A stretch of 45,910 nt of DNA from Nemertoderma westbladi. Lineage: Eukaryota; Animalia; Xenacoelomorpha. The position numbers were made by a program, and so were the translations under genes. Position 1 is the stretch's first letter. Every line of letters starts with the position of its first letter. Below the pieces are notes generated by a model. That model did no database searches, had not been told where the DNA came from, and saw nothing but the letters and a program-made list of their open reading frames with translations. The stretch spans positions 1-45,910 of the forward strand of contig JAUCBJ010003178.1 of the NCBI GenBank assembly GCA_032718475.1, given 5' to 3'. Positions 9,135 through 41,518 of this stretch are shown piece after piece.

Positions 9135-9266
9135 GCCGAACTCAAGAATCTGATCGCCGCGGTAAAGACGTGATTCACCAATTATCCGCGTCGTTAGAGG
9201 AATTATACAACGGATCAACCCGGAAACTCGCTCTACAGAAGAACACAATATGTTCGAAATGTGAAG
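9135..9266 (+). CDS. DNAJA1: DnaJA coding exon 3: start of CTD-I and first CxxCxGxG
   Basis: ttttcag|[45 protein letters not shown]|gtcagg; 132 nt, phase 1 to 1. Confidence 0.93.
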
Positions 9267-9614: not shown

Positions 9615-9774
9615 GCCGCGGAGGTAAGGCTGGTGCTGTGGAGAACTGCGGGAATTGTCGAGGTACTGGAATGCAGGTTCACGTCCAGCGGATCGGCCCC
9701 GGGATGATACAGCAGGTTCAGAGTGTTTGTTCCGAGTGTCGTGGACAAGGGGAACGGATCAATCCAAAAGATAG
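9615..9774 (+). CDS. DNAJA1: DnaJA coding exon 4: zinc-finger region
   Basis: tgtttag|[55 protein letters not shown]|gtaggt; 160 nt, phase 1 to 2. Its last 34 nt are the first satellite unit. Confidence 0.93.
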
Positions 9775-12700
9775 GTAGGTTGAGTGGACAAGGGGAACGG
9801 ATCAATCCAAAAGATAGGTAGGTTGAGTGGACAAGGGGAACGGATCAATCCAAAAGATAGGTAGGTTGAGAGGACAAGGGGAACGGATCAATCCAACAGA
9901 TAGGTAGGTTGAGTGGACAAGGGGAACGGATCAATCCAAAAGATAGGTAGGTTGAGTGGACAAGGGGAACGGATCAATCCAAAAGATAGGTAGGTTGACA
10001 GGACAATGGGAACGGATCAATCCAAAAGATAGGTAGGTTGAGTGGACATGGGGAACGGATCAATCCAAAAGATAGGTAGGTTGACAGGACAAGGGGAACG
10101 GATCAATCCTAAAGATAGGTAGGTTGAGTGGACAAGGGGAACGGATCAATCCAAAAGATAGGTAGGTTGAGTGGACAAGGGGAACGGATCAATCCAAAAG
10201 ATAGGTAGGTTGAGAGGACAAGGGGAACGGATCAATCCAAAAGATAGGTAGGTTGACAGGACAAGGGGAACGGATCAATCCTAAAGATAGGTAGGTTGAG
10301 TGGACAAGGGGAACGGATCAATCCAAAAGATAGGTAGGTTGAGTGGACAAGGGGAACGGATCAATCCAAAAGATAGGTAGGTTGAGAGGACAAGGGGAAC
10401 GGATCAATCCAAAAGATAGGTAGGTTGAGTGGACAAGGGGAACGGATCAATCCAAAAGATAGGTAGGTTGACAGGACAAGGGGAACGGATCAATCCAAAA
10501 GATAGGTAGGTTGAGTGGACAAGGGGAACGGATCAATCCAAAAGATAGGTAGGTTGACAGGACAAGGGGAACGGATCAATCCAAAAGATAGGTAGGTTGA
10601 GTGGACAAGGGGAACGGATCAATCCTAAAGATAGGTAGGTTGACAGGACAAGGGGAACGGATCAATCCAAAAGATAGGTAGGTTGAGAGGACAAGGGGAA
10701 CGGATCAATCCAAAAGATAGGTAGGTTGAGTGGACAAGGGGAACGGATCAGTCCAAAAGATAGGTAGGTTGAGTGGACAAGGGGAACGGATCAATCCAAA
10801 AGATAGGTAGGTTGAGTGGACAAGGGGAACGGATCAATCCAAAAGATAGGTAGGTTGACAGGACAAGGGGAACGGATCAATCCTAAAGATAGGTAGGTTG
10901 ACAGGACAAGGGGAACGGATCAATCCAAAAGATAGGTAGGTTGAGAGGACAAGGGGAACGGATCAATCCAAAAGATAGGTAGGTTGAGTGGACAAGGGGA
11001 ACGGATCAATCCAAAAGATAGGTAGGTTGACAGGACAAGGGGAACGGATCAATCCTAAAGATAGGTAGGTTGACAGGACAAGGGGAACGGATCAATCCAA
11101 AAGATAGGTAGGTTGAGTGGACAAGGGGAACGGATCAATCCAAAAGATAGGTAGGTTGAGTGGACAAGGGGAACGGATCAATCCAAAAGATAGGTAGGTT
11201 GACAGGACAAGGGGAACGGATCAATCCAAAAGATAGGTAGGTTGAGTGGACAAGGGGAACGGATCAATCCAAAAGATAGGTAGGTTGACAGGACAAGGGG
11301 AACGGATCAATCCAAAAGATAGGAAGGTTGAGAGGACAAGGGGAACGGATCAATCCAAAAGATAGGTAGGTTGACAGGACAAGGGGAACGGATCAATCCA
11401 AAAGATAGGTAGGTTGACAGGACAAGGGGAACGGATCAATCCAAAAGATAGGTAGGTTGAGAGGACATGGGGAACGGATCAATCCAAAAGATAGGTAGGT
11501 TGAGTGGACAAGGGGAACGGATCAATCCAAAAGATAGGTAGGTTGACAGGACAAGGGGAACGGATCAATCCAAAAGATAGGTAGGTTGAGAGGACAAGGG
11601 GAACGGATCAATCCAAAAGATAGGTAGGTTGAGAGGACAAGGGGAACGGATCAATCCAAAAGATAGGTAGGTTGAGTGGACAAGGGGAACGGATCAATCC
11701 AAAAGATAGGTAGGTTGAGTGGACAAGGGGAACGGATCAATCCTAAAGATAGGTAGGTTGAGTGGACAAGGGGAACGGATCAATCCAAAAGATAGGTAGG
11801 TTGAGTGGACAAGGGGAACGGATCAATCCAAAAGATAGGTAGGTTGAGTGGACAAGGGGAACGGATCAATCCAAAAGATAGGTAGGTTGAGTTGACAAGG
11901 GGAACGGATCAATCCAAAAGATAGGTAGGTTGAGTGGACAAGGGGAACGGATCAATCCAAAAGATAGGTAGGTTGAGTGGACAAGGGGAACGGATCAATC
12001 CAAAAGATAGGTAGGTTGAGTGGACAAGGGGAACGGATCAATCCTAAAGATAGGTAGGTTGAGTGGACATGGGGAACGGATCAATCCAAAAGATAGGTAG
12101 GTTGAGTGGACAAGGGGAACGGATCAATCCAAAAGATAGGTAGGTTGAGTTGACAAGGGGAACGGATCAATCCAAAAGATAGGTAGGTTGACAGGACAAG
12201 GGGAACGGATCAATCCTAAAGATAGGTAGGTTGAGAGGACAAGGGGAACGGATCAATCCTAAAGATAGGTAGGTTGAGAGGACATGGGGAACGGATCAAT
12301 CCAAAAGATAGGTAGGTTGAGTGGACAAGGGGAACGGATCAATCCAAAAGATAGGTAGGTTGAGTTGACAAGGGGAACGGATCAATCCAAAAGATAGGTA
12401 GGTTGAGTTGACAAGGGGACCGGATCAATCCAAAAGATAGGTAGGTTGAGTGGACAAGGGGAACGGATCAATCCTAAAGATAGGTAGGTTGAGTTGACAA
12501 GGGGAACGGATCAATCCAAAAGATAGGTAGGTTGAGTTGACAAGGGGAACGGATCAATCCAAAAGATAGGTAGGTTGACAGGACAAGGGGAACGGATCAA
12601 TCCTAAAGATAGGTAGGTTGAGAGGACAAGGGGAACGGATCAATCCTAAAGATAGGTAGGTTGAGAGGACAAGGGGAACGGATCAATCCTAAAGATAGGT

Positions 12701-15700
12701 AGGTTGACAGGACAAGGGGAACGGATCAATCCTAAAGATAGGTAGGTTGAGAGGACAAGGGGACCGGATTAATCCTAAAGATAGGTAGGTTGAGTGGACA
12801 AGGGGAACGGATCAATCCAAAAGATAGGTAGGTTGACAGGACAAGGGGAACGGATCAATCCAAAAGATAGGTAGGTTGACAGGACAAGGGGAACGGATCA
12901 ATCCTAAAGATAGGTAGGTTGAGAGGACAAGGGGAACGGATCAATCCTAAAGATAGGTAGGTTGACAGGACAAGGGGAACGGATCAATCCAAAAGATAGG
13001 TAGGTTGAGTGGACAAGGGGAACGGATCAATCCAAGAACGGATCAATCCAAAAGATAGGTAGGTTGACAGGACAAGGGGAACGGATCAATCCAAAAGATA
13101 GGTAGGTTGAGTGGACAAGGGGAACGGATCAATCCAAGAACGGATCAATCCAAAAGATAGGTAGGTTGACAGGACAAGGGGAACGGATCAATCCTAAAGA
13201 TAGGTAGGTTGACAGGACAAGGGGAACGGATCAATCCAAAAGATAGGTAGGTTGAATGGACAAGGGGAACGGATCAATCCAAGAACGGATCAATCCAAAA
13301 GATAGGTAGGTTGACAGGACAAGGGGAACGGATCAATCCTAAAGATAGGTAGGTTGACAGGACAAGGGGAACGGATCAATCCAAAAGATAGGTAGGTTGA
13401 GTGGACAAGGGGAACGGATCAATCCAAGAACGGATCAATCCAAAAGATAGGTAGGTTGAGTTGACAAGGGGAACGGATCAATCCAAAAGATAGGTAGGTT
13501 GAGTGGACAAGGGGAACGGATCAATCCAAAAGATAGGTAGGTTGACAGGACAAGGGGAACGGATCAATCCAAAAGATAGGTAGGTTGAGTGGACAAGGGG
13601 AACGGATCAATCCAAAAGATAGGTAGGTTGAGTGGACAAGGGGAACGGATCAATCCAAAAGATAGGTAGGTTGAGTGGACAAGGGGAACGGATCAATCCA
13701 AAAGATAGGTAGGTTGAGTGGACAAGGGGAACGGATCAATCCAAAAGATAGGTAGGTTGACAGGACAAGGGGAACGGATCAATCCAACAGATAGGTAGGT
13801 TGAGTGGACAAGGGGAACGGATCAATCCAAAAGATAGGTAGGTTGAGTGGACAAGGGGAACGGATCAATCCTAAAGATAGGTAGGTTGACAGGACAAGGG
13901 GAACGGATCAATCCTAAAGATAGGTAGGTTGAGTTGACAAGGGGAACGGATCAATCCAAAAGATAGGTAGGTTGAGTGGACAAGGGGAACGGATCAATCC
14001 AAAAGATAGGTAGGTTGAGTGGACAAGGGGAACGGATCAATCCAAAAGATAGGTAGGTTGACAGGACAAGGGGAACGGATCAATCCAAAAGATAGGTAGG
14101 TTGAGTGGACAAGGGGAACGGATCAATCCAAAAGATAGGTAGGTTGAGTGGACAAGGGGAACGGATCAATCCTAAAGATAGGTAGGTTGACAGGACAAGG
14201 GGAACGGATCAATCCTAAAGATAGGTAGGTTGACAGGACAAGGGGAACGGATCAATCCAAAAGATAGGTAGGTTGACAGGACAAGGGGAACGGATCAATC
14301 CAAAAGATAGGTAGGTTGAGTGGACAAGGGGAACGGATCAATCCAAAAGATAGGTAGGTTGAGTGGACAAGGGGAACGGATCAATCCTAAAGATAGGTAG
14401 GTTGACAGGACAAGGGGAACGGATCAATCCAAAAGATAGGTAGGTTGAGTGGACAAGGGGAACGGATCAATCCAAAAGATAGGTAGGTTGAGTGGACAAG
14501 GGGAACGGATCAATCCTAAAGATAGGTAGGTTGACAGGACAAGGGGAACGGATCAATCCTAAAGATAGGTAGGTTGACAGGACAAGGGGAACGGATCAAT
14601 CCAAAAGATAGGTAGGTTGAGTGGACAAGGGGAACGGATCAATCCAAAAGATAGGTAGGTTGAGTGGACAAGGGGAACGGATCAATCCAAAAGATAGGTA
14701 GGTTGAGAGGACAAGGGGAACGGATCAATCCAAAAGATAGGTAGGTTGACAGGACAAGGGGAACGGATCAATCCAAAAGATTGGTAGGTTGAGTGGACAA
14801 GGGGAACGGATCAATCCAAAAGATAGGTAGGTTGAGTGGACAAGGGGAACGGATCAATCCTAAAGATAGGTAGGTTGACAGGACAAGGGGAACGGATCAA
14901 TCCAAAAGATAGGTAGGTTGAGTGGACAAGGGGAACGGATCAATCCAAAAGATAGGTAGGTTGAGTGGACAAGGGGAACGGATCAATCCTAAAGATAGGT
15001 AGGTTGACAGGACAAGGGGAACGGATCAATCCTAAAGATAGGTAGGTTGACAGGACAAGGGGAACGGATCAATCCAAAAGATAGGTAGGTTGAGTGGACA
15101 AGGGGAACGGATCAATCCAAAAGATAGGTAGGTTGAGTGGACAAGGGGAACGGATCAATCCAAAAGATAGGTAGGTTGAGAGGACAAGGGGAACGGATCA
15201 ATCCAAAAGATAGGTAGGTTGACAGGACAAGGGGAACGGATCAATCCTAAAGATAGGTAGGTTGAGTGGACAAGGGGAACGGATCAATCCTAAAGATAGG
15301 TAGGTTGAGTTGACAAGGGGAACGGATCAATCCAAAAGATAGGTAGGTTGAGAGGACAAGGGGAACGGATCAATCCAAAAGATAGGTAGGTTGAGTGGAC
15401 AAGGGGAACGGATCAATCCAAAAGATAGGTAGGTTGAGTGGACAAGGGGAACGGATCAATCCAAAAGATAGGTAGGTTGAGTGGACAAGGGGAACGGATC
15501 AATCCAAAAGATAGGTAGGTTGAGAGGACAAGGGGAACGGATCAATCCAAAAGATAGGTAGGTTGACAGGACAAGGGGAACGGATCAATCCTAAAGATAG
15601 GTAGGTTGAGTGGACAAGGGGAACGGATCAATCCAAAAGATAGGTAGGTTGAGTGGACAAGGGGAACGGATCAATCCAAAAGATAGGTAGGTTGAGTGGA

Positions 15701-18700
15701 CAAGGGGAACGGATCAATCCAAAAGATAGGTAGGTTGAGTTGACAAGGGGAACGGATCAATCCAAAAGATAGGTAGGTTGAGAGGACAAGGGGAACGGAT
15801 CAATCCAAAAGATAGGTAGGTTGAGTGGACAAGGGGAACGGATCAATCCAAAAGATAGGTAGGTTGAGTGGACAAGGGGAACGGATCAATCCTAAAGATA
15901 GGTAGGTTGAGTGGACAAGGGGAACGGATCAATCCAAAAGATAGGTAGGTTGAGTGGACAAGGGGAACGGATCAATCCTAAAGATAGGTAGGTTGAGTGG
16001 ACAAGGGGAACGGATCAATCCAAAAGATAGGTAGGTTGAGTGGACAAGGGGAACGGATCAATCCAAAAGATAGGTAGGTTGAGTTGACAAGGGGAACGGA
16101 TCAATCCAAAAGATAGGTAGGTTGAGTGGACAAGGGGAACGGATCAATCCTAAAGATAGGTAGGTTGAGTTGACAATGGGAACGGATCAATCCAAAAGAT
16201 AGGTAGGTTGAGAGGACAAGGGGAACGGATCAATCCAAAAGATAGGTAGGTTGAGTGGACAAGGGGAACGGATCAATCCAAAAGATAGGTAGGTTGAGTG
16301 GACAAGGGGAACGGATCAATCCTAAAGATAGGTAGGTTGAGTGGACAAGGGGAACGGATCAATCCAAAAGATAGGTAGGTTGAGTGGACAAGGGGAACGG
16401 ATCAATCCAAAAGATAGGTAGGTTGAGTTGACAAGGGGAACGGATCAATCCTAAAGATAGGTAGGTTGAGTGGACAAGGGGAACGGATCAATCCAAAAGA
16501 TAGGTAGGTTGAGTGGACAAGGGGAACGGATCAATCCAAAAGATAGGTAGGTTGAGTTGACAATGGGAACGGATCAATCCAAAAGATAGGTAGGTTGAGT
16601 GGACAAGGGGAACGGATCAATCCAAAAGATAGGTAGGTTGAGTTGACAATGGGAACGGATCAATCCAAAAGATAGGTAGGTTGAGTGGACAAGGGGAACG
16701 GATCAATCCAAAAGATAGGTAGGTTGAGTGGACAAGGGGAACGGATCAATCCTAAAGATAGGTAGGTTGAGTTGACAATGGGAACGGATCAATCCAAAAG
16801 ATAGGTAGGTTGAGAGGACAAGGGGAACGGATCAATCCAAAAGATAGGTAGGTTGAGTGGACAAGGGGAACGGATCAATCCAAAAGATAGGTAGGTTGAG
16901 TGGACAAGGGGAACGGATCAATCCTAAAGATAGGTAGGTTGAGTGGACAAGGGGAACGGATCAATCCAAAAGATAGGTAGGTTGAGTGGACAAGGGGAAC
17001 GGATCAATCCAAAAGATAGGTAGGTTGAGTTGACAAGGGGAACGGATCAATCCTAAAGATAGGTAGGTTGAGTGGACAAGGGGAACGGATCAATCCAAAA
17101 GATAGGTAGGTTGAGTGGACAAGGGGAACGGATCAATCCAAAAGATAGGTAGGTTGAGTTGACAATGGGAACGGATCAATCCAAAAGATAGGTAGGTTGA
17201 GTGGACAAGGGGAACGGATCAATCCTAAAGATAGGTAGGTTGAGTGGACAAGGGGAACGGATCAATCCAAAAGATAGGTAGGTTGAGTGGACAAGGGGGA
17301 CGGATCAATCCAAAAGATAGGTAGGTTGAGTGGACAAGGGGAACGGATCAATCCAAAAGATAGGTAGGTTGACAGGACAAGGGGAACGGATCAATCCAAA
17401 AGATAGGTAGGTTGAGTGGACAAGGGGAACGGATCAATCCAAAAGATAGGTAGGTTGACAGGACAAGGGGAACGGATCAATCCAAAAGATAGGTAGGTTG
17501 AGTGGACAAGGGGAACTGATCAATCCAAAAGATAGGTAGGTTGAGTTGACAAGGGGAACGGATCAATCCAAAAGATAGGTAGGTTGACAGGACAAGGGGA
17601 ACGGATCAATCCAAAAGATAGGTAGGTTGAGTGGACAAGGGGAACGGATCAATCCAAAAGATAGGTAGGTTGAGTTGACAATGGGAACGGATCAATCCAA
17701 AAGATAGGTAGGTTGAGTTGACAAGGGGAACGGATCAATCCAAGAACGGATCAATCCAAAAGATAGGTAGGTTGACAGGACAAGGGGAACGGATCAATCC
17801 AAAAGATAGGTAGGTTGAGTGGACAAGGGGAACGGATCAATCCAAGAACGGATCAATCCAAAAGATAGGTAGGTTGACAGGACAAGGGGAACGGATCAAT
17901 CCTAAAGATAGGTAGGTTGAGAGGACAAGGGGAACGGATCAATCCTAAAGATAGGTAGGTTGAGAGGACAAGGGGAACGGATCAATCCAAAAGATAGGTA
18001 GGTTGAGAGGACAAGGGGAACGGATCAATCCAAAAGATAGGTAGGTTGACAGGACAAGGGGAACGGATCAATCCTAAAGATAGGTAGGTTGAGAGGACAA
18101 GGGGAACGGATCAATCCAAAAGATAGGTAGGTTGACAGGACAAGGGGAACGGATCAATCCTAAAGATAGGTAGGTTGAGTTGACAATGGGAACGGATCAA
18201 TCCAAAAGATAGGTAGGTTGAGAGGACAAGGGGAACGGATCAATCCTAAAGATAGGTAGGTTGACAGGACAAGGGGAACGGATCAATCCTAAAGATAGGT
18301 AGGTTGAGTGGACAAGGGGAACGGATCAATCCTAAAGATAGGTAGGTTGAGTGGACAAGGGGAACGGATCAATCCAAAAGATAGGTAGGTTGAGTTGACA
18401 ATGGGAACGGATCAATCCAAAAGATAGGTAGGTTGAGTGGACAAGGGGAACGGATCAATCCTAAAGATAGGTAGGTTGAGTGGACAAGGGGAACGGATCA
18501 ATCCAAAAGATAGGTAGGTTGAGTGGACAAGGGGGACGGATCAATCCAAAAGATAGGTAGGTTGAGTGGACAAGGGGAACGGATCAATCCAAAAGATAGG
18601 TAGGTTGACAGGACAAGGGGAACGGATCAATCCAAAAGATAGGTAGGTTGAGTGGACAAGGGGAACGGATCAATCCAAAAGATAGGTAGGTTGACAGGAC

Positions 18701-21700
18701 AAGGGGAACGGATCAATCCAAAAGATAGGTAGGTTGAGTGGACAAGGGGAACTGATCAATCCAAAAGATAGGTAGGTTGAGTTGACAAGGGGAACGGATC
18801 AATCCAAAAGATAGGTAGGTTGACAGGACAAGGGGAACGGATCAATCCAAAAGATAGGTAGGTTGAGTGGACAAGGGGAACGGATCAATCCAAAAGATAG
18901 GTAGGTTGAGTTGACAATGGGAACGGATCAATCCAAAAGATAGGTAGGTTGAGTTGACAAGGGGAACGGATCAATCCAAGAACGGATCAATCCAAAAGAT
19001 AGGTAGGTTGACAGGACAAGGGGAACGGATCAATCCAAAAGATAGGTAGGTTGAGTGGACAAGGGGAACGGATCAATCCAAGAACGGATCAATCCAAAAG
19101 ATAGGTAGGTTGACAGGACAAGGGGAACGGATCAATCCTAAAGATAGGTAGGTTGAGAGGACAAGGGGAACGGATCAATCCTAAAGATAGGTAGGTTGAG
19201 AGGACAAGGGGAACGGATCAATCCAAAAGATAGGTAGGTTGAGAGGACAAGGGGAACGGATCAATCCAAAAGATAGGTAGGTTGACAGGACAAGGGGAAC
19301 GGATCAATCCTAAAGATAGGTAGGTTGAGAGGACAAGGGGAACGGATCAATCCAAAAGATAGGTAGGTTGACAGGACAAGGGGAACGGATCAATCCTAAA
19401 GATAGGTAGGTTGAGTTGACAATGGGAACGGATCAATCCAAAAGATAGGTAGGTTGAGAGGACAAGGGGAACGGATCAATCCTAAAGATAGGTAGGTTGA
19501 CAGGACAAGGGGAACGGATCAATCCTAAAGATAGGTAGGTTGAGTGGACAAGGGGAACGGATCAATCCTAAAGATAGGTAGGTTGAGTGGACAAGGGGAA
19601 CGGATCAATCCAAAAGATAGGTAGGTTGAGTGGACAAGGGGAACGGATCAATCCAAAAGATAGGTAGGTTGAGTTGACAAGGGGAACGGATCAATCCAAA
19701 AGATAGGTAGGTTGAGTGGACAAGGGGAACGGATCAATCCTAAAGATAGGTAGGTTGAGTTGACAATGGGAACGGATCAATCCAAAAGATAGGTAGGTTG
19801 AGAGGACAAGGGGAACGGATCAATCCTAAAGATAGGTAGGTTGACAGGACAAGGGGAACGGATCAATCCTAAAGATAGGTAGGTTGAGAGGACAAGGGGA
19901 ACGGATCAATCCTAAAGATAGGTAGGTTGAGAGGACAAGGGGAACGGATCAATCCAAAAGATAGGTAGGTTGAGAGGACAAGGGGAACGGATCAATCCAA
20001 AAGATAGGTAGGTTGACAGGACAAGGGGAACGGATCAATCCTAAAGATAGGTAGGTTGAGAGGACAAGGGGAACGGATCAATCCTAAAGATAGGTAGGTT
20101 GACAGGACAAGGGGAACGGATCAATCCAAAAGATAGGTAGGTTGAGTGGACAAGGGGACCGGATCAATCCAATTGATAGGTAGGTTGAGTGGACAAGGGG
20201 AACGGATCAATCCAAAAGATAGGTAGGTTGACAGGACAAGGGGAACGGATCAATCCTAAAGATAGGTAGGTTGAGAGGACAAGGGGAACGGATCAATCCT
20301 AAAGATAGGTAGGTTGACAGGACAAGGGGAACGGATCAATCTAAAAGATAGGTAGGTTGAGTGGACAAGGGGACCGGATCAATCCAATTGATAGGTAGGT
20401 TGAGAGGACAAGGGGAACGTATCAATCCAAAAGATAGGTAGGTTGAGAGGACAAGGGGAACGGATCAATCCTAAAGATAGGTAGGTTGTCAGGACAAGGG
20501 GAACGGATCAATCCTAAAGATAAGTAGGTTGAGAGGACAAGGGGAACGGATCAATCCAATTGATAGGTAGGTTGAGAGGACAAGGGGAACGGATCAATCC
20601 AATTGATAGGTAGGTTGAGAGGACAAGGGGAACGGATCAATCCAAAAGATAGGTAGGTTGAGAGGACAAGGGGAACGGATCAATCCTAAAGATAGGTAGG
20701 TTGTCAGGACAAGGGGAACGGATCAATCCAATTGATAGGTAGGTTGAGAGGACAAGGGGAACGGATCAATCCAAAAGATAGGTAGGTTGAGAGGACAAGG
20801 GGAACGGATCAATCCTAAAGATAGGTAGGTTGTCAGGACAAGGGGAACGGATCAATCCTAAAGATAGGTAGGTTGAGAGGACAAGGGGAACGGATCAATC
20901 CAAAAGATAGGTAGGTTGAGAGGACAAGGGGAACGGATCAATCCTAAAGAAAGGTAGGTTGTCAGGACAAGGGGAACGGATCAATCCTAAAGATAGGTAG
21001 GTTGTCAGGACAAGGGGAACGGATCAATCCTAAAGATAGGTAGGTTGAGAGGACAAGGGGAACGGATCAATCCAAAAGATAGGTAGGTTGAGTGGACAAG
21101 GGGAACGAATCAATCCTAAAGATAGGTAGGTTGAGTTGACAAGGGGAACGGATCAATCCAAAAGATAGGTAGGTTGAGTGGACAAGGGGAACGGATCAAT
21201 CCAAAAGATAGGTAGGTTGAGTGGACAAGGGGAATGGATCAATCCAAAAGATAGGTAGGTTGAGAGGACAAGGGGAACGGATCAATCCTAAAGATAGGTA
21301 GGTTGAGAGGACAAGGGGAGCGGATCAATCCAAAAGATAGGTAGGTTGACAGGACAAGGGGAACGGATCAATCCAAAAGATAGGTAGGTTGAGTGGACAA
21401 GGGGACCGGATAAATCCAATTGATAGGTAGGTTGAGAGGACAAGGGGAACGGATCAATCCTAAAGATAGGTAGGTTGACAGGACAAGGGGACCGGATCAA
21501 TCCAAAAGATAGGTAGGTTGAGAGGACAAGGGGAACGGATCAATCCTAAAGATAGGTAGGTTGAGAGGACAAGGGGAACGGATCAATCCAAAAGATAGGT
21601 AGGTTGACAGGACAAGGGGAACGGATCAATCCAAAAGATAGGTAGGTTGAGAGGACAAGGGGAACGGATCAATCCTAAAGATAGGTAGGTTGAGAGGACA

Positions 21701-27765: not shown

Positions 27766-30700
27766 TAGGTTGACAGGACAAGGGGACCGGATCAATCCAA
27801 AAGATAGGTAGGTTGAGAGGACAAGGGGAACGGATCAATCCTAAAGATAGGTAGGTTGAGAGGACAAGGGGAACGGATCAATCCAAAAGATAGGTAGGTT
27901 GACAGGACAAGGGGAACGGATCAATCCTAAAGATAGGTAGGTTGAGAGGACAAGGGGAACGGATCAATCCTAAAGATAGGTAGGTTGAGAGGACAAGGGG
28001 AACGGATCAATCCAAAAGATAGGTAGGTTGACAGGACAAGGGGAACGGATCAATCCAAAAGATAGGTAGGTTGAGTGGACAAGGGGACCGGATCAATCCA
28101 ATTGATAGGTAGGTTGAGAGGACAAGGGGAACGGATCAATCCAAAAGATAGGTAGGTTGAGAGGACAAGGGGAACGGATCAATCCTAAAGATAGGTAGGT
28201 TGAGAGGACAAGGGGAACGGATCAATCCAAAAGATAGGTAGGTTGAGAGGACAATGGGAACGGATCAATCCAAAAGATAGGTAGGTTGACAAGACAAGGG
28301 GAACGGATCAATCCAAAAGATAGGTAGGTTGACAGGACAAGGGGAACGGATCAATCCAAAAGATAGGTAGGTTGAGTGGACAAGGGGACCGGATCAATCC
28401 AATTGATAGGTAGGTTGAGAGGACAAGGGGAACGGATCAATCCAAAAGATAGGTAGGTTGAGTGGACAAGGGGACCGGATCAATCCAATTGATAGGTAGG
28501 TTGAGAGGACAAGGGGAACGGATCAATCCTAAAGATAGGTAGGTTGAGAGGACAAGGGGAACGGATCAATCCTAAAGATAGGTAGGTTGAGAGGACAAGG
28601 GGAACGGATCAATCCTAAAGATAGGTAGGTTGAGAGGACAAGGGGAACGGATCAATCCTAAAGATAGGTAGGTTGAGAGGACAAGGGGAACGGATCAATC
28701 CAAAAGATAGGTAGGTTGAGAGGACAAGGGGAACGGATCAATCCAAAAGATAGGTAGGTTGACAGGACAAGGGGAACGGATCAATCCTAAAGATAGGTAG
28801 GTTGAGAGGACAAGGGGAACGGATCAATCCTAAAGATAGGTAGGTTGACAGGACAAGGGGAACGGATCAATCCAAAAGATAGGTAGGTTGAGTGGACAAG
28901 GGGACCGGATCAATCCTAAAGATAGGTAGGTTGTCAGGACAAGGGGAACGGATCAATCCTAAAGATAGGTAGGTTGAGAGGACAAGGGGAACGGATCAAT
29001 CCAATTGATAGGTAGGTTGAGAGGACAAGGGGAACGGATCAATCCAAAAGATAGGTAGGTTGTCAGGACAAGGGGAACGGATCAATCCTAAAGATAGGTA
29101 GGTTGAGAGGACAAGGGGAACGGATCAATCCAAAAGATAGGTAGGTTGAGTGGACAAGGGGAACGGATCAATCCTAAAGATAGGTAGGTTGAGTGGACAA
29201 GGGGAACGGATCAATCCAAAAGATAGGTAGGTTGAGTTGACAAGGGGAACGGATCAATCCAAAAGATAGGTAGGTTGAGAGGACAAGGGGAACGGATCAA
29301 TCCTAAAGATAGGTAGGTTGAGAGGACAAGGGGAACGGATCAATCCAAAAGATAGGTAGGTTGACAGGACAAGGGGAACGGATCAATCCAAAAGATAGGT
29401 AGGTTGAGTGGACAAGGGGACCGGATCAATCCAATTGATAGGTAGGTTGAGAGGACAAGGGGAACGGATCAATCCTAAAGATAGGTAGGTTGACAGGACA
29501 AGGGGAACGGATCAATCCAAAAGATAGGTAGGTTGAGAGGACAAGGGGAACGGATCAATCCTAAAGATAGGTAGGTTGAGAGGACAAGGGGAACGGATCA
29601 ATCCAAAAGATAGGTAGGTTGACTGGACAAGGGGAACGGATCAATCCAAAAGATAGGTAGGTTGAGAGGACAAGGGGAACGGATCAATCCTAAAGATAGG
29701 TAGGTTGAGAGGACAAGGGGAACGGATCAATCCAAAAGATAGGTAGGTTGACAGGACAAGGGGAACGGATCAATCCAAAAGATAGGTAGGTTGAGAGGAC
29801 AAGGGGAACGGATCAATCCTAAAGATAGGTAGGTTGAGAGGACAAGGGGAACGGATCAATCCAAAAGATAGGTAGGTTGACAGGACAAGGGGAACGGATC
29901 AATCCAAAAGATAGGTAGGTTGAGTGGACAAGGGGACCGGATCAATCCAATTGATAGGTAGGTTGAGAGGACAAGGGGAACGGATCAATCCAAAAGATAG
30001 GTAGGTTGAGAGGACAAGGGGAACGGATCAATCCTAAAGATAGGTAGGTTGAGAGGACAAGGGGAACGGATCAATCCAAAAGATAGGTAGGTTGAGAGGA
30101 CAAGGGGAACGGATCAATCCAAAAGATAGGTAGGTTGACAGGACAAGGGGAACGGATCAATCCAAAAGATAGGTAGGTTGACAGGACAAGGGGAACGGAT
30201 CAATCCAAAAGATAGGTAGGTTGAGTGGACAAGGGGACCGGATCAATCCAATTGATAGGTAGGTTGAGAGGACAAGGGGAACGGATCAATCCAAAAGATA
30301 GGTAGGTTGAGTGGACAAGGGGACCGGATCAATCCAATTGATAGGTAGGTTGAGAGGACAAGGGGAACGGATCAATCCTAAAGATAGGTAGGTTGAGAGG
30401 ACAAGGGGAACGGATCAATCCTAAAGATAGGTAGGTTGAGAGGACAAGGGGAACGGATCAATCCTAAAGATAGGTAGGTTGAGAGGACAAGGGGAACGGA
30501 TCAATCCTAAAGATAGGTAGGTTGAGAGGACAAGGGGAACGGATCAATCCAAAAGATAGGTAGGTTGAGAGGACAAGGGGAACGGATCAATCCAAAAGAT
30601 AGGTAGGTTGACAGGACAAGGGGAACGGATCAATCCTAAAGATAGGTAGGTTGAGAGGACAAGGGGAACGGATCAATCCTAAAGATAGGTAGGTTGACAG

Positions 30701-33700
30701 GACAAGGGGAACGGATCAATCCAAAAGATAGGTAGGTTGAGTGGACAAGGGGACCGGATCAATCCAATTGATAGGTAGGTTGAGAGGACAAGGGGAACGG
30801 ATCAATCCTAAAGATAGGTAGGTTGAGAGGACAAGGGGAACGGATCAATCCAAAAGATAGGTAGGTTGACAGGACAAGGGGAACGGATCAATCCAAAAGA
30901 TAGGTAGGTTGAGTGGACAAGGGGACCGGATCAATCCAATTGATAGGTAGGTTGAGAGGACAAGGGGAACGGATCAATCCAAAAGATAGGTAGGTTGTCA
31001 GGACAAGGGGAACGGATCAATCCTAAAGATAGGTAGGTTGAGAGGACAAGGGGAACGGATCAATCCAAAAGATAGGTAGGTTGAGTGGACAAGGGGAACG
31101 GATCAATCCTAAAGATAGGTAGGTTGAGTGGACAAGGGGAACGGATCAATCCAAAAGATAGGTAGGTTGAGTTGACAAGGGGAACGGATCAATCCAAAAG
31201 ATAGGTAGGTTGAGAGGACAAGGGGAACGGATCAATCCTAAAGATAGGTAGGTTGAGAGGACAAGGGGAACGGATCAATCCAAAAGATAGGTAGGTTGAC
31301 AGGACAAGGGGAACGGATCAATCCAAAAGATAGGTAGGTTGAGTGGACAAGGGGACCGGATCAATCCAATTGATAGGTAGGTTGAGAGGACAAGGGGAAC
31401 GGATCAATCCTAAAGATAGGTAGGTTGACAGGACAAGGGGAACGGATCAATCCAAAAGATAGGTAGGTTGAGAGGACAAGGGGAACGGATCAATCCTAAA
31501 GATAGGTAGGTTGATAGGACAAGGGGAACGGATCAATCCAAAAGATAGGTAGGTTGACTGGACAAGGGGAACGGATCAATCCAAAAGATAGGTAGGTTGA
31601 GAGGACAAGGGGAACGGATCAATCCAAAAGATAGGTAGGTTGAGTGGACAAGGGGAACGGATCAATCCAAAAGATAGGTAGGTTGAGAGGACAAGGGGAA
31701 CGGATCAATCCAAAAGATAGGTAGGTTGAGTGGACAAGGGGAACGGATCAATCCAAAAGATAGGTAGGTTGACAGGACAAGGGGAACGGATCAATCCAAA
31801 AGATAGGTAGGTTGAGAGGACAAGGGGAACGGATCAATCCTAAAGATAGGTAGGTTGAGAGGACAAGGGGAACGGATCAATCCAAAAGATAGGTAGGTTG
31901 ACAGGACAAGGGGAACGGATCAATCCAAAAGATAGGTAGGTTGAGTGGACAAGGGGACCGGATCAATCCAATTGATAGGTAGGTTGAGAGGACAAGGGGA
32001 ACGGATCAATCCTAAAGATAGGTAGGTTGAGAGGACAAGGGGAACGGATCAATCCAAAAGATAGGTAGGTTGACAGGACAAGGGGACCGGATCAATCCAA
32101 AAGACAGGTAGGTTGAGAGGACAAGGGGAACGGATCAATCCTAAAGATAGGTAGGTTGAGAGGACAAGGGGACGGATCAATCCAAAAGACAGGTAGGTTG
32201 AGAGGACAAGGGGAACGGATCAATCCTAAAGATAGGTAGGTTGAGAGGACAAGGGGAACGGATCAATCCAAAAGATAGGTAGGTTGACAGGACAAGGGGA
32301 ACGGATCAATCCAAAAGATAGGTAGGTTGAGAGGACAAGGGGAACGGATCAATCCTAAAGATAGGTAGGTTGAGAGGACAAGGGGAACGGATCAATCCAA
32401 AAGATAGGTAGGTTGACAGGACAAGGGGAACGGATCAATCCAATTGATAGGTAGGTTGAGAGGACAAGGGGAACGGATCAATCCAAAAGATAGGTAGGTT
32501 GAGAGGACAAGGGGAACGGATCAATCCTAAAGATAGGTAGGTTGAGAGGACAAGGGGACCGGATCAATCCAAAAGACATGTAGGTTGAGAGGACAAGGGG
32601 AACGGATCAATCCTAAAGATAGGTAGGTTGAGAGGACAAGGGGAACGGATCAATCCAAAAGATAGGTAGGTTGACAGGACAAGGGGAACGGATCAATCCA
32701 AAAGATAGGTAGGTTGAGAGGACAAGGGGAACGGATCAATCCTAAAGATAGGTAGGTTGAGAGGACAAGGGGAACGGATCAATCCAAAAGATAGGTAGGT
32801 TGACAGGACAAGGGGAACGGATCAATCCAATTGATAGGTAGGTTGAGAGGACAAGGGGAACGGATCAATCCAAAAGATAGGTAGGTTGAGAGGACAAGGG
32901 GAACGGATCAATCCTAAAGATAGGTAGGTTGAGAGGACAAGGGGAACGGATCAATCCAAAAGATAGGTAGGTTGACAGGACAAGGGGAACGGATCAATCC
33001 AAAAGATAGGTAGGTTGAGTGGACAAGGGGAACGGATCAATCCAAAAGATAGGTAGGTTGAGTGGACAAGGGGACCGGATCAATCCAATTGATAGGTAGG
33101 TTGAGAGGACAAGGGGAACAGATCAATCCAAAAGATTGTTAGGTTGAGTGGACAAGGGGACCGGATCAATCCAATTGATGGGTAGGTTGAGAGGACAAGG
33201 GGAACGGATCAATCCTAAAGATAGGTAGGTTGAGAGGACAAGGGGAACGGATCAATCCTAAAGATAGGTAGGTTGAGAGGACAAGGGGAACGGATCAATC
33301 CTAAAGATAGGTAGGTTGAGAGGACAAGGGGAACGGATCAATCCTAAAGATAGGGGAACGGATCAATCCAAAAGATAGGTAGGTTGAGTGGACAAGGGGA
33401 CCGGATCAATCCAATTGATAGGTAGGTTGAGAGGACAAGGGGAACGGATCAATCCTAAAGATAGGTAGGTTGAGAGGACAAGGGGAACGGATCAATCCTA
33501 AAGATAGGTAGGTTGAGAGGACAAGGGGAACGGATCAATCCAAAAGATAGGTAGGTTGAGAGGACAAGGGGAACGGATCAATCCAAAAGATAGGTAGGTT
33601 GACAGGACAAGGGGACCGGATCAATCCAAAAGATAGGTAGGTTGAGTGGACAAGGGGAACGGATCAATCCAAAAGATAGGTAGGTTGAGTGGACAAGGGG

Positions 33701-36700
33701 ACCGGATCAATCCTAAAGATAGGTAGGTTGAGTGGACAAGGGGAACGGATCAATCCAAAAGATAGGTAGGTTGACAGGACAATGGGAACGGATCAATCCA
33801 AAAGATAGGTAGGTTGATCGGACAAGGGGAACGGATCAATCCTAAAGATAGGTAGGTTGAGTGGACAAGGGGAACGGTTCAATCCAAAAGATAGGTAGGT
33901 TGAGTTGACAAGGGGAACGGATCAATCCAAAAGATAGGTAGGTTGACAGGACAAGGGGAACGGATCAATCCAAAAGATAGGTAGGTTGAGAGGACAAGGG
34001 GAACGGATCAATCCTAAAGATAGGTAGGTTGAGAGGACAAGGGGAACGGATCAATCCAAAAGATAGGTAGGTTGACAGGACAAGGGGAACGGATCAATCC
34101 AAAAGATAGGTAGGTTGAGTGGACAAGGGGACCGGATCAATCCAATTGATAGGTAGGTTGAGAGGACAAGGGGAACGGATCAATCCAAAAGATAGGTAGG
34201 TTGAGTGGACAAGGGGACCGGATCAATCCAATTGATAGGTAGGTTGAGAGGACAAGGGGAACGGATCAATCCTAAAGATAGGTAGGTTGAGAGGACAAGG
34301 GGAACGGATCAATCCTAAAGATAGGTAGGTTGAGAGGACAAGGGGAACGGATCAATCCTAAAGATAGGTAGGTTGAGAGGACAAGGGGAACGGATCAATC
34401 CTAAAGATAGGTAGGTTGAGTGGACAAGGGGACCGGATCAATCCAATTGATAGGTAGGTTGACAGGACAAGGGGAACGGATCAATCCAAAAGATAGGTAG
34501 GTTGAGTGGACAAGGGGACCGGATCAATCCAATTGATAGGTAGGTTGAGAGGACAAGGGGAACGGATCAATCCTAAAGATAGGTAGGTTGAGAGGACAAG
34601 GGGAACGGATCAATCCTAAAGATAGGTAGGTTGAGAGGACAAGGGGAACGGATCAATCCTAAAGATAGGTAGGTTGAGAGGACAAGGGGAACGGATCAAT
34701 CCAAAAGATAGGTAGGTTGACAGGACAAGGGGAACGGATCAATCCAAAAGATAGGTAGGTTGACAGGACAAGGGGAACGGATCAATCCAAAAGATATGTA
34801 GGTTGAGTGGACAAGGGGACCGGATTAATCCAATTGATAGGTAGGTTGAGAGGACAAGGGGAACGGATCAATCCTAAAGATAGGTAGGTTGACAGGACAA
34901 GGGGACCGGATCAATCCAAAAGATAGGTAGGTTGAGAGGACAAGGGGAACGGATCAATCCTAAAGATAGGTAGGTTGAGAGGACAAGGGGAACGGATCAA
35001 TCCAAAAGATAGGTAGGTTGACTGGACAAGGGGAACGGATCAATCCAAAAGATAGGTAGGTTGAGAGGACAAGGGGAACGGATCAATCCAAAAGATAGGT
35101 AGGTTGAGTGGACAAGGGGAACGGATCAATCCAAAAGATAGGTAGGTTGAGAGGACAAGGGGAACGGATCAATCCAAAAGATAGGTAGGTTGAGTGGACA
35201 AGGGGAACGGATCAATCCAAAAGATAGGTAGGTTGACAGGACAAGGGGAACGGATCAATCCAAAAGATAGGTAGGTTGAGAGGACAAGGGGAACGGATCA
35301 ATCCTAAGGATAGGTAGGTTGAGAGGACAAGGGGAACGGATCAATCCAAAAGATAGGTAGGTTGACAGGACAAGGGGAACGGATCAATCCAAAAGATAGG
35401 TAGGTTGAGTGGACAAGGGGACCGGATCAATCCAATTGATAGGTAGGTTGAGAGGACAAGGGGAACGGATCAATCCTAAAGATAGGTAGGTTGACAGGAC
35501 AAGGGGGCCGGATCAATCCAAAAGACAGGTAGGTTGAGAGGACAAGGGGAACGGATCAATCCTAAAGATAGGTAGGTTGAGAGGACAAGGGGAACGGATC
35601 AATCCAAAAGATAGGTAGGTTGACAGGACAAGGGGAACGGATCAATCCAAAAGATAGGTAGGTTGAGAGGACAAGGGGAACGGATCAATCCTAAAGATAG
35701 GTAGGTTGAGAGGACAAGGGGAACGGATCAATCCAAAAGATAGGTAGGTTGGCAGGACAAGGGGAACGGATCAATCCAAAAGATAGGTAGGTTGAGAGGA
35801 CAAGGGGAACGGATCAATCCAAAAGATAGGTAGGTTGAGAGGACAAGGGGAACGGATCAATCCTAAAGATAGGTAGGTTGAGAGGACAAGGGGAACGGAT
35901 CAATCCAAAAGATAGGTAGGTTGACAGGACAAGGGGAACGGATCAATCCAAAAGATAGGTAGGTTGAGTGGACAAGGGGAACGGATCAATCCAAAAGATA
36001 GGTAGGTTGAGTGGACAAGGGGACCGGATCAATCCAATTGATAGGTAGGTTGAGAGGACAAGGGGAACAGATCAATCCAAAAGATAGTTAGGTTGAGTGG
36101 ACAAGGGGAACGGATCAATCGTAAAGATAGGTAGGTTGAGAGGACAAGGGGAACGGATCAATCCTAAAGATAGGTAGGTTGAGAGGACAAGGGGAACGGA
36201 TCAATCCTAAAGATAGGTAGGTTGAGAGGACAAGGGGAACGGATCAATCCTAAAGATAGGGGAACGGATCAATCCAAAAGATAGGTAGGTTGAGTGGACA
36301 AGGGGACCGGATCAATCCAATTGATAGGTAGGTTGAGAGGACAAGGGGAACGGATCAATCCTAAAGATAGGTAGGTTGAGAGGACAAGGGGAACGGATCA
36401 ATCCTAAAGATAGGTAGGTTGAGAGGACAAGGGGAACGGATCAATCCAAAAGATAGGTAGGTTGAGAGGACAAGGGGACCGGATCAATCCAAAAGATAGG
36501 TAGGTTGACAGGACAAGGGGACCGGATCAATCCAAAAGATAGGTAGGTTGAGTGGACAAGGGGAACGGATCAATCCAAAAGATAGGTAGGTTGAGTGGAC
36601 AAGGGGAACGGATCAATCCTAAAGATAGGTAGGTTGAGTGGACAAGGGGAACGGATCAATCCAAAAGATAGGTAGGTTGACAGGACAATGGGAACGGATC

Positions 36701-39700
36701 AATCCAAAAGATAGGTAGGTTGATCGGACAAGGGGAACGGATCAATCCTAAAGATAGGTAGGTTGAGTGGACAAGGGGAACGGTTCAATCCAAAAGATAG
36801 GTAGGTTGAGTTGACAAGGGGAACGGATCAATCCAAAAGATAGGTAGGTTGACAGGACAAGGGGAACGGATCAATCCAAAAGATAGGTAGGTTGAGAGGA
36901 CAAGGGGAACGGATCAATCCTAAAGATAGGTAGGTTGAGAGGACAAGGGGAACGGATCAATCCAAAAGATAGGTAGGTTGACAGGACAAGGGGAACGGAT
37001 CAATCCAAAAGATAGGTAGGTTGAGTGGACAAGGGGACCGGATCAATCCAATTGATAGGTAGGTTGAGAGGACAAGGGGAACGGATCAATCCAAAAGATA
37101 GGTAGGTTGAGTGGACAAGGGGACCGGATCAATCCAATTGATAGGTAGGTTGAGAGGACAAGGGGAACGGATCAATCCTAAAGATAGGTAGGTTGAGAGG
37201 ACAAGGGGAACGGATCAATCCTAAAGATAGGTAGGTTGAGAGGACAAGGGGAACGGATCAATCCTAAAGATAGGTAGGTTGAGAGGACAAGGGGAACGGA
37301 TCAATCCTAAAGATAGGTAGGTTGAGTGGACAAGGGGACCAGATCAATCCAATTGATAGGTAGGTTGAGAGGACAAGGGGAACGGATCAATCCAAAAGAT
37401 AGGTAGGTTGAGTGGACAAGGGGACCGGATCAATCCAATTGATAGGTAGGTTGAGAGGACAAGGGGAACGGATCAATCCTAAAGATAGGTAGGTTAAGAG
37501 GACAAGGGGAACGGATCAATCCTAAAGATAGGTAGGTTGAGTGGACAAGGGGAATGGATCAATCCAAAAGATAGGTAGGTTGAGAGGACAAGGGGAACGG
37601 ATCAATCCTAAAGATAGGTAGGTTGAGAGGACAAGGGGAACGGATCAATCCAAAAGATAGGTAGGTTGACAGGACAAGGGGAACGGATCAATTCAAAAGA
37701 TAGGTAGGTTGAGTGGACAAGGGGACCGGATCAATCCAATTGATAGGTAGGTTGAGAGGACAAGGGGAACGGATCAATCCTAAAGATAGGTAGGTTGAGA
37801 GGACAAGGGGAACGGATCAATTCTAAAGATAGGTAGGTTGAGAGGACAAGGGGAACGGATCAATCCTAAAGATAGGTAGGTTGAGAGGACAAGGGGAACG
37901 GATCAATCCAAAAGATAGGTAGGTTGACAGGACAAGGGGAACGGATCAATCCAAAAGATAGGTAGGTTGACAGGACAAGGGGAACGGATCAATCCAAAAG
38001 ATATGTAGGTTGAGTGGACAAGGGGACCGGATCAATCCAATTGATAGGTAGGTTGAGAGGACAAGGGGAACGGATCAATCCTAAAGATAGGTAGGTTGAG
38101 AGGACAAGGGGAACGGATCAATCCTAAAGATAGGTAGGTTGAGAGGACAAGGGGAACGGATCAATCCAAAAGATAGGTAGGTTGAGAGGACAAGGGGAAC
38201 GGATCAATCCAAAAGATAGGTAGGTTGACAGGACAAGGGGACCGGATCAATCCAAAAGATAGGTAGGTTGAGTGGACAAGGGGAACGGATCAATCCAAAA
38301 GATAGGTAGGTTGAGTGGACAAGGGGAACGGATCAATCCTAAAGATAGGTAGGTTGAGTGGACAAGGGGAACGGATCAATCCAAAAGATAGGTAGGTTGA
38401 CAGGACAAGGGGAACGGATCAATCCAAAAGATAGGTAGGTTGAGTGGACAAGGGGAACGGATCAATCCTAAAGATAGGTAGGTTGAGTGGACAAGGGGAA
38501 CGGATCAATCCAAAAGATAGGTAGGTTGAGTTGACAAGGGGAACGGATCAATCCAAAAGATAGGTAGGTTGACAGGACAAGGGGAACGGATCAATCCAAA
38601 AGATAGGTAGGTTGACAGGACAAGGGGAACGGATCAATCCAAAAGATAGGTAGGTTGAGTGGACAAGGGGAACGGATCAATCCAAAAGATAGGTAGGTTG
38701 ACAGGACAAGGGGAACGGATCAATCCAAAAGATAGGTAGGTTGAGTGGACAAGGGGAACGGATCAATCCTAAAGATAGGTAGGTTGAGTTGACAAGGGGA
38801 ACGGATCAATCCAAAAGATAGGTAGGTTGACAGGACAAGGGGAACGGATCAATCCAAAAGATAGGTAGGTTGACAGGACAAGGGGAACGGATCAATCCAA
38901 AAGATAGGTAGGTTGAGTGGACAAGGGGAACGGATCAATCCAAAAGATAGGTAGGTTGACAGGACAAGGGGAACGGATCAATCCAAAAGATAGGTAGGTT
39001 GACAGGACAAGGGGAACGGATCAATCCTAAAGATAGGTAGGTTGAGAGGACAAGGGGAACGGATCAATCCTGAAGATAGGTAGGTTGAGTGGACAAGGGG
39101 AACGGATCAATCCAAAAGATAGGTAGGTTAGAGGACAAGGGGAACGGATCAATCCAAAAGATAGGTGGGTTGCCAGGACCAGGGGAACGGATCAATCCAA
39201 AAGATAGGTAGGTTGAGAGGACAAGGGGAACGGATCAATCCAATTGATAGGTAGGTTGGGAGGACAAGGGGAACGCATCAATCCAAAAGATAGGTAGGTT
39301 GTCAGGACAAGGGGAACGGATCAATCCTAAAGATAGGTAGGTTGCCAGGACAAGGGGAACGGATCAATCCAAAAGATAGGTAGGTTGAGTGGACAAGGGG
39401 AACGGATCAATCCAAAAGATAGGTAGGTTAGAGGACAAGGGGAACGGATCAATCCAAAAGATAGGTAGGTTGCCAGGACAAGGGGAACGGATCAATCCAA
39501 AAGATAGGTAGGTTGAGTGGACAAGGGGACCGGATCAATCCAATTGATAGGTAGGTTGAGAGGACAAGGGGAACGGATCAATCCAAAAGATAGGTAGGTT
39601 GTCAGGACAAGGGGAACGGATCAATCCTAAAGATAGGTAGGTTGAGAGGACAAGGGGAACGGATCAATCCAAAAGATAGGTAGGTTGAGTGGACAAGGGG

Positions 39701-40634
39701 ACCGGATCAATCCAATTGATAGGTAGGTTGAGAGGACAAGGGGAACGGATCAATCCTAAAGATAGGTAGGTTGAGTGGACAAGGGGAACGGATCAATCCA
39801 AAAGATAGGTAGGTTGACAGGACAAGGGGAACGGATCAATCCAAATGATAGGTAGGTTGACAGGACAAGGGGAACGGATCAATCCTAAAGATAGGTAGGT
39901 TGAGAGGACAAGGGGAACGGATCAATCCTAAAGATAGGTAGGTTGAGAGGACAAGGGGAACGGATCAATCCTAAAGATAGGTAGGTTGAGTGGACAAGGG
40001 GAACGGATCAATCCAAAAGATAGGTAGGTTGCCAGGACAAGGGGAACGGATCAATCCAAAAGATAGGTAGGTTGACAGGACAAGGGGAACGGATCAATCC
40101 AAAAGATAGGTAGGTTGAGAGGACAAGGGGACCGGATCAATCCAATTGATAGGTAGGTTGCCAGGACAAGGGGAACGGATCAATCCAAAAGATAGGTAGG
40201 TTGACAGGACAAGGGGAACGGATCAATCCAAAAGATAGGTAGGTTGAGAGGACAAGGGGAACGGATCAATCCTAAAGATAGGTAGGTTGAGTGGACAAGG
40301 GGAACGGATCAATCCAAAAGATAGGTAGGTTGACAGGACAAGGGGAACGGATCAATCCAAAAGATAGGTAGGTTGACAGGACAAGGGGAACGGATCAATC
40401 CTAAAGATAGGTAGGTTGAGAGGACAAGGGGAACGGATCAATCCTAAAGATAGGTAGGTTGAGAGGACAAGGGGAACGGATCAATCTTAAAGATAGGTAG
40501 GTTGAGTGGACAAGGGGAACGGATCAATCCTAAAGATAGGTAGGTTGACAGGACAAGGGGAACGGATCAATCCAAAAGATAGGTAGGTTGAGAGGACAAG
40601 GGGAACGGATCAATCCAAAAGATAGGTAGGTTGA
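27766..40634 (+). repeat. 43-bp satellite, block 2 (~300 units)
   Basis: Same unit, resuming in register after the transposon and ending at ...GATAGGTAGGTTGA|cttgtaatc. Confidence 0.98.
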
Positions 40635-40639
40635 CTTGT

Positions 40640-41457
40640 AATCATATGTTGTTTAAAAATATGGACCGCCGTATCGGCACAATTCATGGGAATCCCAAGA
40701 CAAAAGTTATATGTTGCTACAGTCCAACCAATGCCTCAGAGCCAGAACAAGCAGTCAAGTTTTTTGAAGATCTGACTGGACTTTTAAAGGAAAGGACATT
40801 CCGAAACACAATGTCGAATAATTGCTGGTGACCTGAATACGCAAATTGGCCCAGAAGACATCAAGGGTTACACATATAACACCAGTTCTAATGGAAATGG
40901 GTACTTACTTTTAGACCTAATGGTGAATGTGAATTGATAGCAACAAACAACACATTCGAAAAGAGTAAGGGGAAGCTATGGACCTTTCAATACCCTAATG
41001 GAACCAAAGCACAACTGGATTACATCCTTATAAGTGGAGAAACAGCATGATCAACTGCGAGGCATACAGCTTGTTCAACCTAATTGGTTCGGACCACAGA
41101 ATTGTGACTGCAGAGATCAGACTCAGTTAGAGAACCAGCAAACCCAGGACAAGCAAGCAAATCAAGTATGACTGTAAAGGATGCTTACACAGTAGAAGTT
41201 CAACGTAAACAGCGAAAACATCAACAAGGTTGAGAAAGCTAAAGAAGATCTTAAATTGGCCTACAACATCAGCCTTGAGAAGTACATACAAGATGGAAGA
41301 AATTACAACTGCTTACATACAGCAATCCAATCAAGACTTACCTGGCAAACTGTAAATGAGGTATCTGGTCGGAAAAGTTGTGCAAAGGGGTGCCTCAAAA
41401 CTGATAGTCCCGAAGAACTTGATGGGAAATGGAAAGATGACATCAGCAACTTATACT
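40640..41457 (+). pseudogene. Decayed non-LTR retrotransposon fragment: APE endonuclease region, RTE-like
   Basis: Frameshifted pieces give GNPKTKVICCYSPTN, AGDLNTQIG, NGNGYLL, IATNNTFEKSKGKLWTFQYPNGTKAQLDYILI and GSDHRIVTAEIRLSLR, which are the APE motifs YxP, GDxN, LDY and SDH. Confidence 0.85.
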
Positions 41458-41518
41458 AAAAATTCTGCTTATAATTATTACTTTAATTAATTATAAATTA
41501 ATTAATTAATTAATTATA

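Follow-up and report, generated by a model that had tools for sequence, protein, structure and literature searches.

We analysed a 45,910-nucleotide stretch of DNA from the xenacoelomorph Nemertoderma westbladi (assembly GCA_032718475.1, contig JAUCBJ010003178.1, forward strand; hereafter the window), which carries a gene for a class A J-domain protein (DnaJA, an Hsp40) whose fourth intron is largely filled by a 43-bp tandem repeat. Joining its six exons gave 222 codons without a stop, the window ending at codon 222. The encoded frame shows the features of a DnaJA1-like protein, namely a J domain with the HPD motif, a glycine/phenylalanine-rich (G/F) region and four CxxCxG motifs, and Pfam matches cover the J domain (exons 1-2) and the zinc-finger domain (exon 4; Table 1). 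Identity to the top-scoring animal DnaJA1 matches is 64-70%. All five introns are of the GT-AG type with T-rich acceptors, and measure 3,069, 372, 348, 35,353 and 688 nt from introns 1 to 5. A first-pass annotation of this DNA had contrasted the size of intron 4 with the other introns (348-3,069 nt) and had described the flanking exons as open and in phase, and both descriptions stand.

The repeat unit had been claimed to combine the 34 terminal nucleotides of exon 4 with 9 nucleotides of intron. This is what we found, unit 1 (9741-9783) consisting of 34 exon nucleotides in frame followed by GTAGGTTGA. The units extend over about 31 kb (9741-40634), and Tandem Repeats Finder reported a single array at 9743-40634 with a period of 43 and a score of 44,681. 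With a regular unit defined as having at most five mismatches to unit 1, tiling resolved 668 regular units and one break of 1,436 nt; a further 13 units are irregular, with lengths of 59 nt (eight), 68 nt (two) or 42 nt (three). A looser tiling of 670 units gave a mean identity to unit 1 of 96%. The array is discontinuous, a point missed by the first-pass annotation, being split by a 1,430-bp element at 26336-27765. Intact AG|GTAGGT donors number 670, the first at 9775 and the last at 40626; among the regular units the donor 9-mer is altered in 13 and its GT lost in 3. The earlier figure of about 685 thus holds for the length of the array, which equals some 685 units, but not for the count of intact donors. 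Array units make up 29.4 of the 35.4 kb of intron 4, at a density of 45.5 donors per 2 kb, and no second site for the unit was found within the window, where the closest match outside the array has mismatches at 17 of 43 positions. As had been predicted, reading through donor 1 would bring an in-frame stop (AGG TAG) into the message and end the protein after residue 191, short of the fourth CxxCxG motif and of the C-terminal domain.

Table 1. Features of the DnaJA locus and of its expanded intron 4, in window coordinates.
Feature	Position	Strand	Remarks
DnaJA coding exon 1, J-domain start, HPD motif	5414..5542	+	PF00226, E 1.3e-13
DnaJA exon 2, J-domain end and G/F-rich region	8612..8762	+	
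DnaJA exon 3, first CxxCxG motif	9135..9266	+	
DnaJA exon 4, zinc-finger motifs 2 and 3; final 34 nt are the repeat source	9615..9774	+	PF00684, E 5.6e-11
Unit 1, functional exon end and authentic donor TAG|GTAGGTTGA	9741..9783	+	Read-through in-frame stop 9776-9778
5' portion of the 43-bp array, many units equal to the exon copy	9741..26335	+	
Insertion of 1,430 bp with 12-bp terminal inverted repeats (1 mismatch) and 6-bp target duplication TAGGTT	26336..27765		
3' portion of the 43-bp array, final donor 40626	27766..40634	+	
Decayed long interspersed nuclear element (LINE) remnant, endonuclease and linker, ~15-40 nt past the last unit	40650..41453	+	5' end approximate
Uninterrupted 981-codon open reading frame (ORF) like that of a non-LTR (long terminal repeat) retrotransposon, with reverse transcriptase domain	41510..44455	+	PF00078, E 1.1e-12
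DnaJA exon 5, fourth CxxCxG motif, T-rich acceptor ahead	45128..45195	+	
DnaJA exon 6 start, cut by the window end	45884..45910	+	

Most of the unit (34 of 43 nucleotides) codes for a protein motif that animal DnaJA1 homologs have in common. The direction of origin, as read from the sequence, is therefore from exon to satellite, and the earlier proposal that the satellite was born from a functional exon end together with its donor is borne out. The array also carries traces of its own turnover. We counted 75 distinct unit sequences, whose order depends on position along the array, and six duplicated blocks of 828-1,374 nt that differ at one to four positions each and lie at offsets of 1.2-8.1 kb. 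One further tandem duplicate, of 1,298 nt at an offset of 1,236, is exact, and this block, about 4% of the array, could be either very recent or false. For the common variants every one of the four two-site combinations is present, so that recombinant units exist, and units short by a single base number only 3 among about 680. Given the nested and slightly diverged block duplications, the recombinant units and the inserted element with its target duplication, the array has a high probability of being real.

The distribution of variants among the units was then compared with the coding constraint on the exon copy. The two commonest variants, at column 2 (411 of 668 units) and column 26 (209 of 668 units), are both silent in the exon frame, where 24 of 102 possible changes are silent (p about 0.05, post hoc), and the six next commonest variants are non-silent. 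Units identical to the exon copy are found 74 times in the first 200 units and 37 times in the remaining 468. The block-wise trend (rho -0.65 over 22 blocks, which are not independent) is driven by column 2 and not by column 26. Silent variants together with this clustering fit an exchange of sequence between exon and array, or the retention of the founder type near the array edge.

We asked what distinguishes donor 1 from its copies. Donor 1 matches the U1 consensus at 7 of 11 positions, within the range of 6-9 for the gene's five donors. Since the array donors are identical in sequence, the choice among them must rest on position. Among 3,572 AG dinucleotides in the array, none is preceded by a tract of more than 50% pyrimidine, as compared with 67-78% for the five real acceptors, and the unit itself is 71% purine, so the later donors would lack an upstream partner. 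For want of such a tract the AG|GT sites of the array were also rejected as ratchet points for recursive splicing. Neither AATAAA nor ATTAAA occurs in the 29.4 kb of units, as against five and one, respectively, in the 3.1-kb intron 1. Rare alleles fall in donor columns at the background rate (9 of 37 alleles, donor columns being 9 of 43; p=0.55), so that the copied donors show no sign of being either protected or purged; common variants occupy nine columns, all of them outside the donor (p=0.09). Structural masking of donors found no signal, the predicted RNA fold being unremarkable at donor 1 and in two internal stretches (z 0.12, 1.02 and 0.61), and the window has no Rfam match. A coding role for the array was rejected as well, the longest open stretch reaching 85 codons in a scan of the 5' part.

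On every feature testable here, the array is an exon-intron boundary minisatellite of the kind described in human F7 or as a mirage in lancelets. In the human arrays, which comprise the 37-bp variable number tandem repeat (VNTR) of F7 intron 7 and those of IFI6 (also known as 6-16), CBS intron 13, LMNB2 and PDGF intron 4, monomer 1 likewise spans the exon-intron boundary, and identical donors are repeated into the intron with a similar unit size (PMC1557585). These human arrays hold 5-9 copies in F7, 26 sites in IFI6, 15-20 copies in CBS, 10-15 in LMNB2 and 16-18 in PDGF. The first donor is the sole one used in F7, LMNB2 and PDGF, the next two being used as well in CBS and IFI6, and in F7 minigenes of up to 12 monomers the most upstream site wins even against stronger pseudo-sites (PMC1557585). 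By contrast, the present array has about 680 copies where the human ones have 5-26, its unit is mostly exon (34 of 43 nt, as against 4 of 37 in F7), and it contains an inserted element as well as duplications of kilobase-sized blocks; donor use has been measured in the human arrays, whereas the present one is known as sequence (PMC1557585). Tandem boundary copies in an invertebrate have been described as mirages in the lancelet genes for Adh3, the globins BflGb6 and BflGb9, troponin C and PGBD5. As here, many of their splice signals are intact; the units measure 10-160 bp and turn over by unequal exchange, and splicing is left undisturbed (PMC3087553, PMC3902484). The quoted globin and PGBD5 cases have 2-6 copies, however, making the present array about a hundredfold longer, and length instability has been demonstrated for the lancelet mirages while the present array is one sequence (PMC3087553, PMC3902484). 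The same anatomy being on record, with the first donor in use (PMC1557585, PMC3087553), the locus is less surprising as an extreme test of 5' splice-site choice than the first-pass annotation had suggested.

A search of Creative Commons papers and bioRxiv found no published boundary array that is larger than this one or comes near its size. In Drosophila, Y-linked genes have giant introns filled with simple satellites unrelated to exons. They resemble intron 4 in that satellite DNA drives intron size, but they are of megabase scale whereas the present intron measures 35 kb and is built from the gene's own boundary (PMC6508621, PMC11207136).

Taken together, we favor, at a probability of roughly 70%, a boundary array in a DnaJA1-type gene that would have grown neutrally, with the first donor used and the copies ignored. 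According to this model, some 680 copies of a 43-bp piece of the exon 4/intron 4 boundary spread into the intron, probably through unequal exchange in the absence of selection. We expect the spliceosome to take donor 1 and to bypass the copies. Donor 1 alone has a true acceptor upstream at normal exon length (160 nt) and would for that reason be the only donor to define an exon; it is also the earliest to be transcribed. If donor 2 or 3 were used on rare occasions, the resulting message would contain a stop and be destined for nonsense-mediated decay (NMD). The array would be tolerated because the protein is unchanged, no cleavage signal is introduced and the cost is confined to transcription length. 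The absence of an acceptor-like tract from the unit and the background mutation of the donor columns make neutral growth with first-donor use the most likely outcome, and we infer exon definition with first-come use of donor 1, clearing of rare leaks by NMD and neutral growth of the array. The mode of working would then resemble that of the F7 intron 7 VNTR and the lancelet mirages at satellite scale, and most likely the array has no function.

Several points weigh against neutral growth with first-donor use. First-donor use is extrapolated from arrays 25-100 times smaller. In vitro, the downstream of two duplicated donors may be preferred, a point on which the literature searched yielded nothing. 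Excerpts of one paper considered in this context (PMC3973305) hold nothing on donor proximity. In CBS and IFI6, splicing leaks to the two pseudo-sites that follow (PMC1557585). The silent nature of the top variants and the clustering of exon-identical units near the exon are not what plain neutral drift predicts. The gene itself departs from the consensus of 71 animal homologs at 11 of 106 near-invariant columns, and no identical protein was found in the database, where the best match reached 83% on exon 4. Finally, a search for the unit junction in a metagenome collection gave 0 matches, which is a weak test for an animal genome.

A stress-sensitive attenuator is unlikely but fares as well as any alternative: stress would open downstream donors, the retained TAG would route the message to NMD, and array length would tune Hsp40 output. 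An in-frame stop precedes each downstream donor, which is the definition of a latent 5' splice site, and latent sites in human genes, likewise intronic donors after an in-frame stop, are switched on by heat shock to give NMD substrates (PMC3510495). Those are scattered single sites, however, unlike the tandem donors here (PMC3510495). Leakage of the CBS and IFI6 kind would suit such a switch, but in F7 the choice of site is independent of both stop codons and copy number (PMC1557585). The donor columns show no excess conservation in their rare alleles, although their freedom from common variants, noted above, leans the other way. One or two additional donors would be enough for attenuation, leaving 670 unnecessary, and a decrease of chaperone under heat runs contrary to the usual role of chaperones. 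We place on the same unlikely footing a broader scheme, in which the exon end would be a live member of the satellite that exchanges sequence with it, only silent variants passing selection, while the stop-guarded donors gather U1 and heat diverts part of the Hsp40 message to NMD according to array length, so that the array would act as a copy-number dial.

Slightly less probable is a dead or relaxed paralog, in which array growth would have been free of cost. The 11 deviating columns and the three mobile elements accumulated in the intron would agree with relaxation. Against this, 222 codons run without stop or frameshift, the HPD motif and all four zinc motifs are kept, every intron retains its GT-AG ends and T-rich acceptor, the differences between unit 1 and the two commonest variants are all silent, and three of the 11 deviations (R32, L33 and G38) reproduce a J-domain motif common to fungal-type matches.

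A little lower again we rate the possibility that the nascent intron serves as a local sponge for U1 small nuclear ribonucleoprotein (snRNP), as a condensate seed or as a U1 shield against premature cleavage. About 46 donors per 2 kb in units lacking polyadenylation hexamers would suit such a role. A few nascent transcripts offer thousands of sites at most, which is small next to cellular U1. A published parallel is the chicken LL2R RNA, which comes from a tandem array with more than 5 donors per 2 kb, far in excess of its acceptors, and with a scarcity of poly(A) signals, and which gathers snRNPs at its locus in oocytes (bioRxiv 10.64898/2026.03.19.712899). The donor density of the present array is about nine times that quoted for LL2R, but LL2R has a non-coding unit, a retrotransposon promoter and demonstrated snRNP recruitment, whereas the present array lies in an intron of an open coding gene (bioRxiv 10.64898/2026.03.19.712899). 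U1 binding is plausible as a by-product, but there is no sign of selection at the locus, and the intron length to be protected is mostly the array itself. The attenuator and the U1 sink are therefore alike in being plausible by analogy, with nothing at the locus showing selection for either.

That the array is mostly an assembly expansion we hold to be improbable. The exact 1,298-nt duplicate is what such an error could leave, but dropping it removes only its ~4% share, the other large duplicates carry substitutions, the 75 unit sequences follow a position-dependent order and an element with a target duplication sits within the array. On the sequence, an assembly artefact and a dead gene copy both appear unlikely. 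An older dispersed satellite, inserted here or captured by the exon, was rejected on the direction of origin and is very improbable, the unit encoding a conserved DnaJA1 motif and the window holding no further copy of it.

The element that splits the array is probably a non-autonomous DNA transposon. Direct repeats rich in T lie close to either end, and an inverted repeat of 40 nt lies inside it (26848-26955). On the plus strand it carries strong, T-rich acceptor-like sites at 26382, 26411 and 26472 and a GTAAGT donor at 26491; of the pseudo-exons so delimited, those of 108 nt and 18 nt would be in frame and stop-free, while that of 79 nt would not.

Beyond the array, 4.5 kb of intron 4 consists of retroelement-rich DNA that the first-pass annotation had missed. 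A full HMMER search with the LINE remnant gave 44 relatives, and its homologs carry PF03372/PF14529, one of them also PF00078, while a word-index search came back empty and Pfam gave no match on any of six pieces of the remnant. Derivation of the donor from the GGVG motif of the LINE remnant was rejected by eye, as GGVG lies 87 nt ahead of the GNP motif in the homologs and the donor 62 nt ahead here, and as the likeness fades about 40 nt upstream of GNP. Some tblastn alignments that reach 40592 over the array were taken as over-extension. The 981-codon ORF lies on the gene's own strand, has C-terminal cysteine and nuclease-like motifs besides the reverse transcriptase, presumably resembles the CRE clade and is possibly recent. 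An AACTG repeat stands at about 45076-45094, 33 nt ahead of the acceptor. This repeat may be the tail of the LINE remnant, and a TGTAAT at both ends may be its target duplication, the homology itself stopping at 41453; if this is true, the earlier intron measured only about 46 nt.

The age of intron 4 was approached through 26 related loci, of which 18 with introns were retained and 7 transcript-like loci and 1 distant locus excluded. None of the 18, all of them distant relatives, shares the position of intron 4: in 13 the sequence of exons 4 and 5 forms a single exon, 4 near-identical loci are split elsewhere and 1 is partial. All 7 of the related genomic loci spanning the position of intron 2 (8763-9134) likewise lack an intron there. 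Intron 4 may therefore be a gain of this lineage, in whose DnaJA gene at least two introns may have been gained, and the array appears to be younger than the intron. The mRNA junction at intron 4 reads AG|GT, which, with a position absent from 18 distant loci, would fit an intron that arose when an exon segment containing AGGT was duplicated in tandem; by contrast, the intron end is not exon 4-like and the intron part of the unit is not the start of exon 5 (PMC3443670). The start of intron 4 shares a 6-nt run with exon 5, a length reached by 1.8% of 706 background GT sites (3.7% by alignment score), and the longest run common to the intron 4 end and the exon 4 end is 2 nt beyond the AG. The tandem-duplication route (Rogers model) is thus not established for intron 4. 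In the DnaJA locus of one relative (L013:1821-2001) we noticed a 26-bp tandem repeat with CAG|GTAAGA-like motifs that does not copy the end of exon 4.

The J-domain loop of the gene (5414-5542) reads HPDKGGD, a fungal-type motif, where the animal set has HPDKNP, and the remaining protein is animal-like. When exon 1 was searched alone, the best matches were basidiomycete proteins. HPDKGGD is present in 115 of 115 full-length matches of this exon 1 set, whose named members are fungal, and ALRL in 12 of 12 among the matches listed. A fungal origin of the gene was nevertheless rejected, since the 222-residue frame reached a higher median score against the animal set (296 bits, n=72) than against the set attracted by exon 1 (252 bits, n=115). 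Elsewhere in the gene, intron 1 holds two tandem copies of a 166-bp unit (7923-8248) and, judged by eye, seems to contain nested inverted-repeat elements as well, and intron 5 (45196-45883) contains what appears by eye to be a decayed retroelement fragment.

The array is larger than any case we found and belongs to a kind already described in human and lancelet genes. Provided that splicing of the gene is normal, first-donor selection would extend from about 26 identical sites, the largest published case found, to about 670 sites over 31 kb, and in an invertebrate. A general principle would change only if the use of downstream donors proved to be regulated or if the exon were shown to exchange sequence with the array. 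As a satellite with a known founder that is still under coding constraint, the array would allow mutation, polarity and exon exchange to be read directly.

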